This document shows, piece by piece, positions 6,733 through 12,490 of a stretch of DNA of 64,000 bases. Both the position numbers and the translations under genes were made by a program. The notes beneath the pieces were generated by a model. The model had not been told where the DNA came from, did no database searches, and saw nothing but the letters and a program-made list of their open reading frames with translations. The stretch comes from an uncultured Pseudomonadales bacterium (GTDB taxonomy: Bacteria > Patescibacteriota > Microgenomatia > UBA1400 > UBA1396), in contig CAZRWP010000001.1 of the NCBI GenBank assembly GCA_964603945.1, positions 184,547-248,546 on the forward strand. The letters run 5' to 3'. Numbering within the stretch: the stretch's first letter is position 1; the number at the start of each line of letters is the position of its first letter.

Positions 6733-9195
6733 GTGAATGCTCTAAGCACCAGAATAATTTTTATATTCACGCTTATCCTAAGTTTTTTTGTATTCACGAA
6801 ACAAACATTAGCCCAAACTTGCCAAGGCTTTATAACTTGCGAGGAATGGCATCAAGTCTATAAGTGTTCTAACTCAGGTGATAATTGCACTCCGACAGCT
6901 CCTTTGCCCTGCGGATTCACCGGTGGCTCATGCCAAGTTACAAACATCTCTGATCGCTGGAATGAACCATGTAATAAAAATCCGGGATTTTGCCAATTAG
7001 CTTGCCCGCCCGGAACTACCAAGCTATCTGATACCTGCAATTGGTATACCCCGCCGACTCCACCCACTCCCCCTACACCAGCCTGTGGCGATGGCTACTG
7101 CAACGCCAGCATCGGTGAAAACTGCGCCACTTGCGCAGGAGACTGTGGTTCCTGTCCCATTGACGATGGTAATAGTGGTGGCAGCGGTGGCGGTAATTGT
7201 GTTAGCGACTACTGCGCTGGGGCTGACCAATGTTACTCTCAAGGTGGAACGACAGGTGGCGCGGGGCCACGTCCTTCAGGAGGCAATTGCTCAACGGGAA
7301 CCGTAATGTGCTGTGTGCCATCCGGAGGTGGGGGTCCTACTATGCCTAATTGTGCCGCGCCTCAAAATCTAACTGGTAGGTGTGAAGTGTATGACACTTA
7401 CATGCGACTCCTTTGGGAATGGACCTCACCTTATGCAGATCTATACAACGAGGTTCAGTTTACCAATGACCCAACTTTTAGTTCCACAATTTACCAAGGG
7501 GTGAGAAACCACGGCGTTACTTCTTTCCCTAGCCAGTACCATGACTACCGTGGCTTACCACCTACATATCCAGACGGTCATTTCCCAGTAGACACATATT
7601 ATCTACGAGTCAGGACCTCATCTGGAAATTGGTGTGTGCCCACCACCTGGGGCAATCCTTACGCTCTGCGCCCAGAAAACTGTACAGATTTCCGCACCCC
7701 AAACGCTACCCCAACCGTGAGTATTACCGCTCCCCCTAGCGGCTCCACCTATCTACAAGGAGACACCGTCACCATCTCCGCTTCAGCCAACGACAGCGAT
7801 GGCACCATTACCTCCATAAGTTTGTACCGCGGTAGCACGCTCTTTTGGGGAATGTCTAACCCGTCTTCTACAGCCAATTACTCCATTAGCTTCCCTTGGT
7901 ATAACATCCCTGCCGGTAGCTACTCCATTACCGCTAGAGCCACAGATGATGACGGCGCGATTGGTGTCTCGACCCCGGTCAGTTTCACCGTCAACGCTTT
8001 CCAAAACATCTCTGGCAATGTCTACATTGACCCTAACGCCACCGTTAACTTAACTACTGGTATCTGCACCGGTAACGCTGGGGCTTTAACCGGCGCTGAG
8101 GGCAGTTTGGGAGTGCGAGTAACCAATACTATTGGCGGTGGCACGTACAACTCTACTGTTAGTAGCGGCAATTGGTCAGTTACTACCCCGCCCGCTTCAG
8201 ACGGACGATTCCGGGCGGCACTACTAGGCCTAGACCCTAACTTTGTCTGTGCTTGTCCAGCGGGGTGTAGTTACTCCGCGGGCATTGACTCTCCTCAATC
8301 TAATGTCAACTTCTACTTAACCCCCACCGCTGACGCCTGGTGGCAGGTCGAAGGCGGGCCCATTGCCGCCTTTGCCAGTACCGGGCAAAGAGCCTTTAGC
8401 ACTCTTATTCCCGAGTTTTGCTCTCTGCCTACCTGTAACCCCTACTTAATTGTCAACCAGAATGGCGGTGACAGTGAGGGCTACGTGTTGACTGGCGGCA
8501 GTTACGTTTCTGGCACGGATCAAATTGACGAAAGTGGCCACAACTGGGTGGCGCAAATGAGTAGTCCTCCTGACAAGCGCCAGGACTACCACTACTTTAA
8601 GGTTTTGGCTCTTTTGCCCACTTCGCCAGAAAGTGACTTCATTCCCTTTGATCCACTTGAAGGCACCACGACGAGCTTGGACAAGCCAGACAAGGACCAG
8701 GAGTTTGTCAATGGCGATCAGGCGCGAGCTTACTTCCACGCTGGGGAAGCGGTCATTGACTCACCCTGGAGCGTTGAGTCGGATGAAAAACTGGTCGTAC
8801 TAATTGATGGTGACATTTCCATTGAAGAGCCCATCACGGTCGAGACGGGTGGCTTTTTTATGCTGGTTGCCTCTGGCGACATTACCTTTGATGCCTCCTT
8901 GGGGCACGACGACCTCAACAATCTTGAGGCCGTCGCCGAAGGCGTGTATGTCGCCGATGGCGTCTTAACCGTTGAAAGCGCTGAAACAGGCGGGGACAAA
9001 CGCTTCGTTGGTGAAGGCACCTTTGTGGGCTGGAGCGGGGTGAAATTGGAGCGCGATTATGATGACGGGGCAGGCCGGCGCGCCCTAAACAATGTTTCAG
9101 CAGTGGAGTACTTTAGATACCGGCCCGACTTTTTGACCGCCGCTCCGGAAGAATTCATGCGCTCGCGTTACAGCTGGCAGCAAGTGAATCCTTAG
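6733..9195 (+). CDS. secreted cysteine-rich surface protein with PT-linker and bacterial Ig-like (Big) domain
   Basis: GTG start; signal peptide IIFIFTLILSFFVFTKQTLAQ; about 35 Cys in first 250 aa; PTPPTPPTPPTP linker; segment PTVSITAPPSGSTYLQGDTVTISASANDSDGTITSISLY...SYSITARATDDDG matches Big/Ig-like fold pattern. Confidence 0.6.
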   Translation: MNALSTRIIFIFTLILSFFVFTKQTLAQTCQGFITCEEWHQVYKCSNSGDNCTPTAPLPCGFTGGSCQVTNISDRWNEPCNKNPGFCQLACPPGTTKLSDTCNWYTPPTPPTPPTPACGDGYCNASIGENCATCAGDCGSCPIDDGNSGGSGGGNCVSDYCAGADQCYSQGGTTGGAGPRPSGGNCSTGTVMCCVPSGGGGPTMPNCAAPQNLTGRCEVYDTYMRLLWEWTSPYADLYNEVQFTNDPTFSSTIYQGVRNHGVTSFPSQYHDYRGLPPTYPDGHFPVDTYYLRVRTSSGNWCVPTTWGNPYALRPENCTDFRTPNATPTVSITAPPSGSTYLQGDTVTISASANDSDGTITSISLYRGSTLFWGMSNPSSTANYSISFPWYNIPAGSYSITARATDDDGAIGVSTPVSFTVNAFQNISGNVYIDPNATVNLTTGICTGNAGALTGAEGSLGVRVTNTIGGGTYNSTVSSGNWSVTTPPASDGRFRAALLGLDPNFVCACPAGCSYSAGIDSPQSNVNFYLTPTADAWWQVEGGPIAAFASTGQRAFSTLIPEFCSLPTCNPYLIVNQNGGDSEGYVLTGGSYVSGTDQIDESGHNWVAQMSSPPDKRQDYHYFKVLALLPTSPESDFIPFDPLEGTTTSLDKPDKDQEFVNGDQARAYFHAGEAVIDSPWSVESDEKLVVLIDGDISIEEPITVETGGFFMLVASGDITFDASLGHDDLNNLEAVAEGVYVADGVLTVESAETGGDKRFVGEGTFVGWSGVKLERDYDDGAGRRALNNVSAVEYFRYRPDFLTAAPEEFMRSRYSWQQVNP

Positions 9196-10789: not shown

Positions 10790-12490
10790 CTAAACCCCAT
10801 CTTCCAAATTCATCACCGCGGATTCCACCGCCTGGATCAGCTGATCTTCGCTTTCTTTAGCCGCCTCTGCTGAGACATCTTTGACCGGCTTGACCAAGGA
10901 ACAACGGAAATCGACTTCAGCTTGAAAACACTCAGTCAAGGCACGCTTAAACATGTCCTTGTATTTGGGTGATTCTAATTTTTCCTGATGAAAGCCCATA
11001 TCAAAACACACCTCAATTTCCTGATTTGCTACCTGGCCTAAACTGGCATTTCTAAGCAGAGATTCCAAAATCGGACTTTGTGTACGAGAAGTTAGCAGAA
11101 GTTTATTCCAAGCAGATTCAACCTGCTGACGAGATAAGGGATTATTTAATTTTTGTTTTGCAGACGAACCATTTTTTGCTGAAATCGCCTCATTTGCCGA
11201 CGAATCCATCGCCACCGCTTCAACGGCCTCAACCTCTGCAATCGCCTCCACATCTGTAATCGCTTCAACCTCTGCCACCACGCTGACATCATCCTTAACT
11301 AGCGGGATGGCCGGTTTTTGATCATTTTTTTTTACGCGGTTGGCGCTGGATTCAGTTTTTTGAGAAGAGTTTGGTTTATCAGGCTTTTTTTTTGTTTTTG
11401 ACGAACTTGCTTGATCAGTGTTTATTTTGTTTTCACCGCCATTTGCTCCAGACTCGCCATTTTCCGCCAAACACCAATCCAGACAAGCCAGTTCAAGCTT
11501 CAGGCCATCAATCGGCTCATAACCGCCAACCCGATCCGCCAAATGCCCAAGTAATCTGGCAATGTGGGAAATGGTCGCGGCCGGTTCCGGCCGTTCAATT
11601 GCCCGGTGCAAGCGCTCCTGCAACTGGTAAAACACCGCTTGTTCTAGGACGGCACTATCTAGGCCGCGCTGGCGATATTCTTGAAAAAACCCAGAAACAG
11701 CCGCCACATCTTTTTTGGCCAAATGCTTGAGCAGGGCAAGACTATCATCTGGACTGCCGGCAATTCGCTTGAGTTGCTCTTCATCAACCGCCTGCTCCTG
11801 TACTACCGCTTCAAAATACTTAACGGCGTCACGGAAACTGCCCTGAGCGGCAACAATAAGTTTCTGCCGAGCCTCTGCCGATAATTTGATTTTTTCTTGT
11901 TTAGCAATTACGTCTAAAACAGCCGTAATCTCATCTGGAGTTGCCTGCCGGAAACGAACCACCTCACACCTGGATTGCACCGTCGCCGGTATCTTGTGAG
12001 GCTCAGTGGTGGCTAAGACGAAAACGACCCGTTCTGGCGGCTCCTCGAGCATCTTTAGCAAGGCATTGAAGGCCTCAGTCGTCAACATGTGGACTTCATC
12101 CAAAATGACTACTCTAATCAAGCCTTCGCTGGGCACCACCGAAATTTGCTCCTGTAGCAAGCGAATATCATCAATTCCGCGGTGGCTGGCGGCGTCCTGC
12201 TCCAGTACCACCTGGGAACGTCCCAAGGCAATCTTCTGCAAAATCGGATCATCGCTGTCGGGTTCTTTAAGCGGACCGGACTGTTTTAAAACTTTTTTAC
12301 TATTGGCAGGATCATTTAGAATTCTGGCCAAAATGCGCGCAGCCGAGGTTTTGCCCGTACCCTTGGGACCAGCAAAAATGTAAGCGTGGGCATAGCGCCC
12401 TGATTTCAAAACACCCTGCAGATACTCTCTAACCGGAGCTAGAGCTAGCTCAGAAACCTTCTGCGGGCGATAAAGTCGATACCATGCCAT
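10790..12490 (-). CDS. dnaX: DNA polymerase III subunit tau/gamma
   Basis: Walker A GPKGTGKTSAARILA, clamp-loader AAA+ domains, Lys/Ser-rich linker then C-terminal tau domains; see finding on A9 tracts. Confidence 0.9.
   Translation of the reverse strand: MAWYRLYRPQKVSELALAPVREYLQGVLKSGRYAHAYIFAGPKGTGKTSAARILARILNDPANSKKVLKQSGPLKEPDSDDPILQKIALGRSQVVLEQDAASHRGIDDIRLLQEQISVVPSEGLIRVVILDEVHMLTTEAFNALLKMLEEPPERVVFVLATTEPHKIPATVQSRCEVVRFRQATPDEITAVLDVIAKQEKIKLSAEARQKLIVAAQGSFRDAVKYFEAVVQEQAVDEEQLKRIAGSPDDSLALLKHLAKKDVAAVSGFFQEYRQRGLDSAVLEQAVFYQLQERLHRAIERPEPAATISHIARLLGHLADRVGGYEPIDGLKLELACLDWCLAENGESGANGGENKINTDQASSSKTKKKPDKPNSSQKTESSANRVKKNDQKPAIPLVKDDVSVVAEVEAITDVEAIAEVEAVEAVAMDSSANEAISAKNGSSAKQKLNNPLSRQQVESAWNKLLLTSRTQSPILESLLRNASLGQVANQEIEVCFDMGFHQEKLESPKYKDMFKRALTECFQAEVDFRCSLVKPVKDVSAEAAKESEDQLIQAVESAVMNLEDGV

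Follow-up and report, generated by a model that had tools for sequence, protein, structure and literature searches.

The dnaX locus and the domain organization of its product

The window, by which we denote the whole 64-kb stretch of DNA analysed, is numbered from its first letter (position 1), and all positions given here refer to it. On its minus strand lies a single open reading frame (ORF) for a 566-aa protein. This protein shows the DnaX signatures DNA_pol3_delta2 and AAA and matches E. coli gamma/tau with an E value of ~1e-39. The genes ybaB and then recR come next after it, in the window as in all relatives fetched; the gene order dnaX-ybaB-recR is usual in most bacteria. Named relatives, Woesebacteria-labelled MAGs included, place this dnaX among the Patescibacteria. 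The gene is divided as follows:

10790..12490, minus strand: dnaX coding sequence with its stop codon, a single ORF for a 566-aa tau-like protein
11459..12490, minus strand: clamp-loader domains I-III, residues 1-344, which tau would share with any gamma-like product
11132..11458, minus strand: hypervariable disordered linker, residues 345-453, which holds both A9 tracts
10793..11131, minus strand: tau-specific C-terminal domain, residues 454-566, missing from every predicted shifted product

An AlphaFold2 model of DnaX built with 34 clade sequences reaches pLDDT values above 90 up to the helix formed by residues 330-344, which ends domains I-III, falls below 50 for residues 347-448, a disordered Lys/Ser-rich linker that includes both tracts, and rises above 90 again for residues 454-565, which form a folded C-terminal domain. 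Because Pfam returned no match on this C-terminal domain, a fold comparison of the model was needed, and it revealed the KH-like fold of tau domain V. The invariant Trp339 marks the end of the conserved N-terminal part, and no conserved columns are found between Trp339 and Trp461. Lysine-rich linkers are common among other Patescibacteria DnaX proteins. Taken together, the gene is dnaX, and its product consists of AAA+ domains I-III and a domain V-like C-terminus that follows a flexible linker. The tracts described below are located, as the original prediction had proposed, between domain III and the tau C-terminus.

A dnaX split into two ORFs was considered and rejected: the window contains the single 566-aa ORF, and neither gamma-length ORFs nor a split dnaX occurred among the best 120 homologs. 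One relative, P0038, is an N-terminal truncation.

Two A9 tracts and the stop codons of the shifted frames

The linker-coding segment contains two sense-strand runs of nine adenines, separated by 60 nt and located 22 and 42 residues, respectively, past the last helix of domain III. The tracts and the stop codons that surround them in the shifted frames are, in the order of transcription:

11385..11393, minus strand: tract 1, sense-strand A9, codons 366-369 (T K K K)
11376..11381, minus strand: TGA TAA double stop in the -1 frame, one codon (GCC) past tract 1; would end a 370-aa product
11332..11334, minus strand: TAA in the +1 frame, from G-TAA-AAA at the head of tract 2; would end a 385/386-aa product of tract 1
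11325..11333, minus strand: tract 2, sense-strand A9, codons 386-389 (V K K N), with the rare valine codon GTA
11322..11324, minus strand: TGA in the -1 frame, directly past tract 2; would end a 389-aa product (...RVKKK)
11299..11301, minus strand: TAG in the +1 frame, seven codons past tract 2; would end a 396/397-aa product

On the coding strand, tract 1 reads ACA AAA AAA AAG CCT GAT AAA and tract 2 reads GTA AAA AAA AAT GAT. Re-reading of this strand found both tracts at the positions and with the sequences originally claimed. It likewise upheld the claims that tract 1 includes the exact slippery heptamer of E. coli dnaX, A AAA AAG, which lies in phase at 11384-11390, and that a UGA in the -1 frame comes straight after each tract, preceded by the single codon GCC at tract 1, where it forms the double stop TGA TAA, and following directly at tract 2. 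The stops of the +1 frame (TAA at 11332-11334, reached after 16 codons from tract 1, and TAG at 11299-11301) are additional to the original prediction, which gave the -1 stops only.

Simulated transcripts with A10 or A8 in place of A9 encode products of 370 or 385 aa at tract 1 and of 389 or 396 aa at tract 2, as compared with 566 aa for tau; A11 transcripts share the +1-frame stops with A8 (385/386 aa for tract 1 and 396/397 aa for tract 2). Ribosomes shifting by -1 on the in-phase A_AAA_AAG would make the same 370-aa protein as is encoded by the A10 transcript. The predicted C-termini of the short products are ...KTKKKA (370 aa), ...KKSLINQTLLKKLNPAPTA, ...RVKKK (389 aa) and ...KKMIKNRPSR. 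These products would comprise 65-70% of full-length DnaX, as compared with 67% in E. coli, in agreement with the relative position that had been proposed for a gamma-like product.

Frequency of A-runs in the window

Long A-runs as such are not in excess. The window contains two A9 matches, as compared with a mean of 6.5 in dinucleotide-preserving shuffles, so that the A9 count is not above chance and long runs are, if anything, depleted. The two dnaX tracts are, however, the sole homopolymer runs of at least nine of any base in the 64 kb, and what is unusual is their placement, not their number. In-frame AAA-AAA sites occur 34 times in the ORFs of the window; the 30 outside dnaX consist of 25 A6 and 5 A7 runs, whereas both sites in the dnaX linker are A9 (maximum of A7 outside dnaX; Fisher P 0.011). 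In a resampling of the synonymous codons of DnaX with the codon usage of the window, one or more A9 runs arose with P 0.27 and two or more with P 0.014. When the other genes of the window were resampled in the same way, about two runs of A8 or longer were expected and none was found. Long A-runs therefore seem to be selected against in the window, with the dnaX linker as a local exception. Several of the tests behind these P values and those of the clade comparison below were picked after the data had been seen, and the lineages compared are not fully independent.

By itself the heptamer AAAAAAG is nothing unusual: it is present in 44 copies in the window and lies in the slippery phase in three ORFs. 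Of these three, the copy in dnaX is alone in having a -1 stop no more than one codon away; the other two are located in ordinary genes. Avoidance of the in-phase A_AAA_AAG is not apparent, three being observed in the ORFs of the window versus ~3.6 expected by a rough estimate from codon usage and Lys-Lys counts. Two further explanations for the tracts were rejected. An origin of tract 1 as a duplicate of the tract-2 segment was not supported by local alignment (P 0.08), and candidate sites for an intrinsic terminator on the opposite strand that uses the T9 runs were no more numerous than in shuffles, none of them being located at the tracts.

Conservation of the tracts among relatives

Two close variants, L172 (99% amino-acid identity) and L083 (91%), keep both A9 runs and both UGAs; the genotype is present in the samples SRR34317617 (L172) and JGI Ga0123335 (L082/L083). 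The nucleotide differences among these two and the window number 13-16 (13 between the window and L172) and all lie within the linker; the UGA of tract 2 is kept in L083 and L172 despite a change of the Asp codon from GAT to GAC. By our estimate, only ~1.5-2.5 of these differences would be expected to fall within the tracts and their stops. Since so few substitutions are expected within the tracts, their retention in L083 and L172 is not statistically informative on constraint.

To extend the comparison, the DNA of 14 distinct clade members (50-99% identity, window included) was considered. Runs of A8-A10 are found at codons ~353-390 in six of them (the window, P0002, P0014, P0015, P0016 and L001) and in none of the other eight, four of which make up a subclade with the sequence LEKKK; there the KKK is kept as protein but is always interrupted by an AAG codon. 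Given the proteins and their codon usage, the clade contains 10 runs versus 5.4 expected (P 0.007), and at 8 of the 10 a shifted frame reaches a stop within one codon, versus 5.1 expected (P 0.004); the number of genes with at least one run, six versus 4.2 expected, is not significant.

The sequence GTA AAA AAA AA[T/A] is common to four lineages (the window, P0002, P0014 and P0016), among which four-fold sites are near saturation. GTA precedes the run in all four of the VKK[N/K] motifs and is rare in these genes, with a frequency of 0.09-0.33. In P0016 lysine is always encoded by AAA, and in such relatives an A-run follows automatically from KKK. At the protein level, the Lys-Lys motif is conserved beside the conserved peptide KPAIPLVKD and could be under protein-level selection.

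Similar arrangements recur at a greater distance. In the distant, AT-richer Patescibacteria pair L073 and L086, an A9 is followed by TTA AAT GA, which supplies stops in both shifted frames. Among all loci fetched that are not of high GC content, every run of A9 or longer within dnaX is located 312-373 codons past the P-loop. In the window, P0014, P0016, L001 and L073 the tracts come in pairs spaced 21-74 nt apart, and the linker of L001 contains, at another place, an in-phase A_AAA_AAG with GGA UGA after it.

The conservation on which the original prediction had been made to depend is therefore found in part: close variants retain the tracts, and several lineages have such runs at the same place in the gene, but 8 of the 14 clade members lack them, and the excess over codon usage is modest (P 0.004-0.014). 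Judged from these sequences, the conservation appears patchy, and the comparative tests provide moderate, not strong, support.

Search for an E. coli-type frameshift cassette

The E. coli cassette comprises an SD-like element ~10 nt upstream of the heptamer and a downstream stem-loop (PMC3711429, PMC5009743). Of this arrangement, the dnaX gene of the window has the in-phase A_AAA_AAG with a -1 stop after one codon. The 25 nt upstream of tract 1 (GATCAAGCAAGTTCGTCAAAAAC) contain no GGAG, GAGG or AGGA, and the same is true of the 25 nt upstream of tract 2. Predicted folds 3' of the two tracts are not significant (z -0.33 and -0.87), and the change of codon 394 from GCC to GCG in L083, as we read it, breaks one pair of the sole candidate hairpin. 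A fold 5' of tract 1 is mildly unusual (z -2.2) and has no known role. An Rfam scan of the dnaX region with E values up to 10 yielded no DnaX element and three chance-level matches only. As to decoding, the slipperiness of AAG in E. coli rests on its tRNA-Lys repertoire, in which one tRNA-Lys(UUU) serves both AAA and AAG; the only tRNA gene in the window is one for tRNA-Cys.

The original prediction had allowed for either an E. coli-type or a Thermus-type mechanism and had proposed a search for both stimulators. As neither the SD-like element 5' of the heptamer nor a significant structure 3' of it was found, and the Rfam element is likewise absent, the E. coli-type half is not borne out, and the dnaX gene of the window does not belong to the E. 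coli cassette family.

A candidate switch by transcriptional slippage

Larsen et al. 2000 reportedly described programmed transcriptional slippage in Thermus thermophilus dnaX. According to PMC1088944 and PMC5009743, this gene needs just an A9 run and close stops in both shifted frames. Slippage by -1 leads to a UGA two codons on and slippage by -2 to a stop sixteen codons on, and the two Thermus gamma forms come from these two stops (PMC4320859). Nine A or T is the reported threshold length for slippage of the enterobacterial RNA polymerase (PMC6260861), and the Thermus dnaX tract slips in E. coli too (PMC6260861, PMC5009743, PMC1088944). In the window, both A9 runs are located within a single tau ORF past domain III and have close stops in both shifted frames, the geometry at tract 1, with stops at 2 and 16 codons, being nearly identical to that in Thermus. 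The Thermus-type half of the original prediction hence fits the locus. The absence of the E. coli stimulators, together with the presence of all that the Thermus gene needs, favours transcriptional slippage, and we think it somewhat probable, from the sequence and by analogy, that this Patescibacteria-like dnaX contains a Thermus-type tau/gamma switch.

According to this proposal, RNA polymerase transcribing either T9 template run would realign the nascent A-run and so produce mRNAs with A8, A10, A11 and other run lengths in addition to A9. Whenever the run length departs from nine by a number that is not a multiple of three, normal translation would stop almost immediately, with products of 370 or 385/386 aa for tract 1 and 389 or 396/397 aa for tract 2; unslipped transcripts would encode the 566-aa tau. 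The resulting gamma-like proteins would keep domains I-III and lose the polymerase-binding C-terminal domain. We infer both a useful rate of slippage in this organism and a use of the short product. Ribosomal -1 slippage on the A_AAA_AAG of tract 1 could add the same 370-aa protein without dedicated stimulators; such a minor ribosomal contribution to gamma is possible because the bare heptamer gives 14-16% frameshifting in vitro, and proteolysis is a possible additional route to gamma. Two serial tracts would multiply the chance of a transcript encoding gamma and make tau output the product of two no-slip probabilities, which could offset a lower slippage of the polymerase than in Thermus.

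A further step would be to regard serial double slippage, with two stop-boxed A9 tracts in sequence, as a recurrent design of Patescibacteria dnaX genes. We put this forward tentatively and consider it rather unlikely. Here, the +1 products of tract 1 would terminate at the G-TAA that leads into tract 2. If true, even a polymerase that slips only moderately could arrive at a balanced tau:gamma ratio, with as many as four defined gamma isoforms.

Alternative explanations

The runs may instead be incidental: a linker that is rich in lysine for protein-level reasons or through low-complexity drift, combined with a preference for AAA, would create them, and truncated DnaX would be tolerated noise. 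We hold this to be possible, though doubtful. One A9 is expected with P 0.27 given the DnaX protein; clade genes with a run do not significantly exceed expectation (6 versus 4.2); the -1 UGA of tract 2 is forced once Asn-Asp is encoded by AAT GAx; Lys-rich linkers are frequent in other Patescibacteria DnaX proteins; and about half of the clade (8 of 14) has no run, the LEKKK group retaining the KKK protein yet breaking the run. Against this, Lys-Lys A-runs elsewhere in the window do not exceed A7 and A9 is depleted there, two A9 runs in the one gene have P 0.014, both the run count (P 0.007) and the stop proximity (P 0.004) in the clade exceed their nulls, and the rare GTA recurs in four of four motifs. 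An A9 that is mere noise would, moreover, cost tau output in an essential gene.

A programmed -1 ribosomal frameshift of the E. coli type as the main mechanism, on the A_AAA_AAG of tract 1 or the A_AAA_AAA of tract 2 with termination at the adjacent UGA, appears unlikely to us, even though the phase of the heptamer and the single codon before UGA are exactly as in E. coli (PMC5009743), E. coli ribosomes shift frame on the bare dnaX heptamer in 14-16% of cases in vitro (bioRxiv 10.1101/2025.10.02.679949), and the L001 linker contains another in-phase A_AAA_AAG before GGA UGA. The lack of an SD-like sequence within 25 nt upstream, the non-significant downstream structure, whose candidate hairpin loses a pair through the GCC to GCG change in L083, the absence of the Rfam DnaX element and the presence of the in-phase heptamer in two ordinary genes of the window all argue against it. 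Homopolymers are mutation and sequencing hot spots (general knowledge; PMC1088944), and the runs might accordingly be hypermutable tracts at the DNA level (contingency loci) or reflect a homopolymer assembly error, the real gene being different. This is very improbable: three independent assemblies from different samples (window, L172 and L083) agree on A9 at both tracts and on an intact ORF, which makes a run-length error unlikely, the best 120 homologs include no gamma-length ORF calls, and a loss of tau, the product of an essential gene, would presumably kill the cell rather than act as a useful switch.

Significance and comparison with known systems

The routes by which bacteria are known to reach gamma, namely ribosomal frameshifting, transcriptional slippage and proteolysis, are unrelated, and their convergence is the main argument that gamma matters. 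Patescibacteria have very small genomes and a pared-down replication machinery. If the Thermus-type switch proposed here is true, the convergence on gamma would reach into a deep and uncultured region of the bacterial tree, and gamma would seem to be retained even under strong genome reduction. Annotation pipelines would then miss a second dnaX product, and metatranscriptomes of uncultured bacteria would offer, in dnaX, a good site at which to measure slippage by RNA polymerase.

That dnaX can be recoded at the tau/gamma junction is well established, from E. coli and its relatives, from Thermus and from the two-ORF A10 type (PMC3711429), and no new kind of mechanism is opened here; our search of the literature on dnaX recoding in Patescibacteria found no relevant report. 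As far as the sequence indicates, the present case is probably a new Thermus-type example of a known solution in a deep uncultured lineage, and the tandem arrangement of candidate tracts is a minor variation, found again in several relatives.

The E. coli dnaX gene shares with the present one the identical heptamer in the same phase, followed by one codon and then UGA in the -1 frame. It differs in that both stimulators and the Rfam match are absent here, and in that the heptamer here forms part of a longer A9 run that would also be expected to slip RNA polymerase. In the two-ORF type, reported from 12 genera (Antonov et al. 2013, PMC3711429), an A10 tract (A7-A9 in Chlorobi) is found and recoding is needed for tau. 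A poly-A tract at the tau/gamma junction and a proposed transcriptional realignment are common to both; the zero frame there, however, encodes gamma and slippage makes tau, whereas the zero frame here encodes tau. DnaX of Caulobacter crescentus is reported to be processed by ClpXP (cited in PMC5009743 and bioRxiv 10.1101/2022.11.10.516041). The outcome is the same, a shortened DnaX that lacks the C-terminal region and is derived from a single tau ORF, but the route is post-translational proteolysis, which needs no slippery nucleotide sequence.

The closest counterpart is the Thermus dnaX gene. Both genes have a single tau ORF with a sense-strand A9 past the clamp-loader core, stops 2 and 16 codons on (at tract 1 in the present case), and a short form, predicted here, that lacks the C-terminal domain. 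Thermus has one A9 tract, whereas two, 60 nt apart, are found here; its tract is far more conspicuous, standing in the genome of a high-GC thermophile, than the tracts in this uncultured Patescibacteria-like bacterium of ~47% GC; and slippage in the latter is a prediction from sequence for a tract that is not kept clade-wide.

Variation within the dnaX linker

Differences between the window dnaX and its closest variant, L172 (99% amino-acid identity), are confined to the segment that encodes part of the disordered, Lys/Ser-rich linker of the protein. Three features of this minus-strand gene are considered here:

~11228-11420 (dnaX nt 1071-1263): 193-nt stretch containing all differences between the window and L172
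11226-11275, minus strand: 18-nt tandem repeat in the linker, 2.8 copies, 78% matches
~11290-11320 (residues ~392-401): KPAIPL[V/A]KD[D/E] peptide, directly downstream of tract 2, the A9 run at 11325-11333

All 13 nucleotide differences between the two genes fall within the 193-nt stretch of the 1701-nt dnaX, and seven of them form a single 16-nt patch that is common to L083, a more distant variant (91% amino-acid identity). The stretch nt 1071-1263 thus appears either to be hypervariable or to have undergone recombination. The acidic EVEA[I/V] repeats of the linker are the product of the 18-nt tandem repeat; additional copies are present in L083, so that the linker is variable in repeat copy number too.

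The short KPAIPL[V/A]KD[D/E] peptide is conserved in the window, L161, L162, L163 and L001, and the rest of the linker is unalignable. In its place, the LEKKK subclade (four members without a long A-run) carries VLEKKK..[V/I]KH[D/N]LAI. The conserved peptide may represent a linear binding motif.

dnaX loci of relatives

L001 (CAZRAG010000025.1) and L002 (CAZOWX010000003.1) are labelled 'uncultured Pseudomonadales', but their DnaX proteins cluster with Patescibacteria/Woesebacteria proteins; this label is probably wrong. The DnaX P-loop ORFs of the high-GC, Rubrobacter-type loci L022, L038, L053 and L158 comprise just ~246-303 residues. Frameshifts, another gene organisation or errors in assembly might account for this short length.

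Coding sequence outside dnaX

One further ORF of the window has the appearance of a candidate secreted or surface protein:

6733-9195, plus strand: 820-aa ORF whose N-terminal region is rich in Cys and which contains the run PPTPPTPPTP

Across the whole window, the A-run at in-frame AAA-AAA (Lys-Lys) sites outside dnaX is exactly A6 in 25 of 30 cases and never exceeds A7. This ceiling suggests that extended A-runs are avoided genome-wide in coding sequence.
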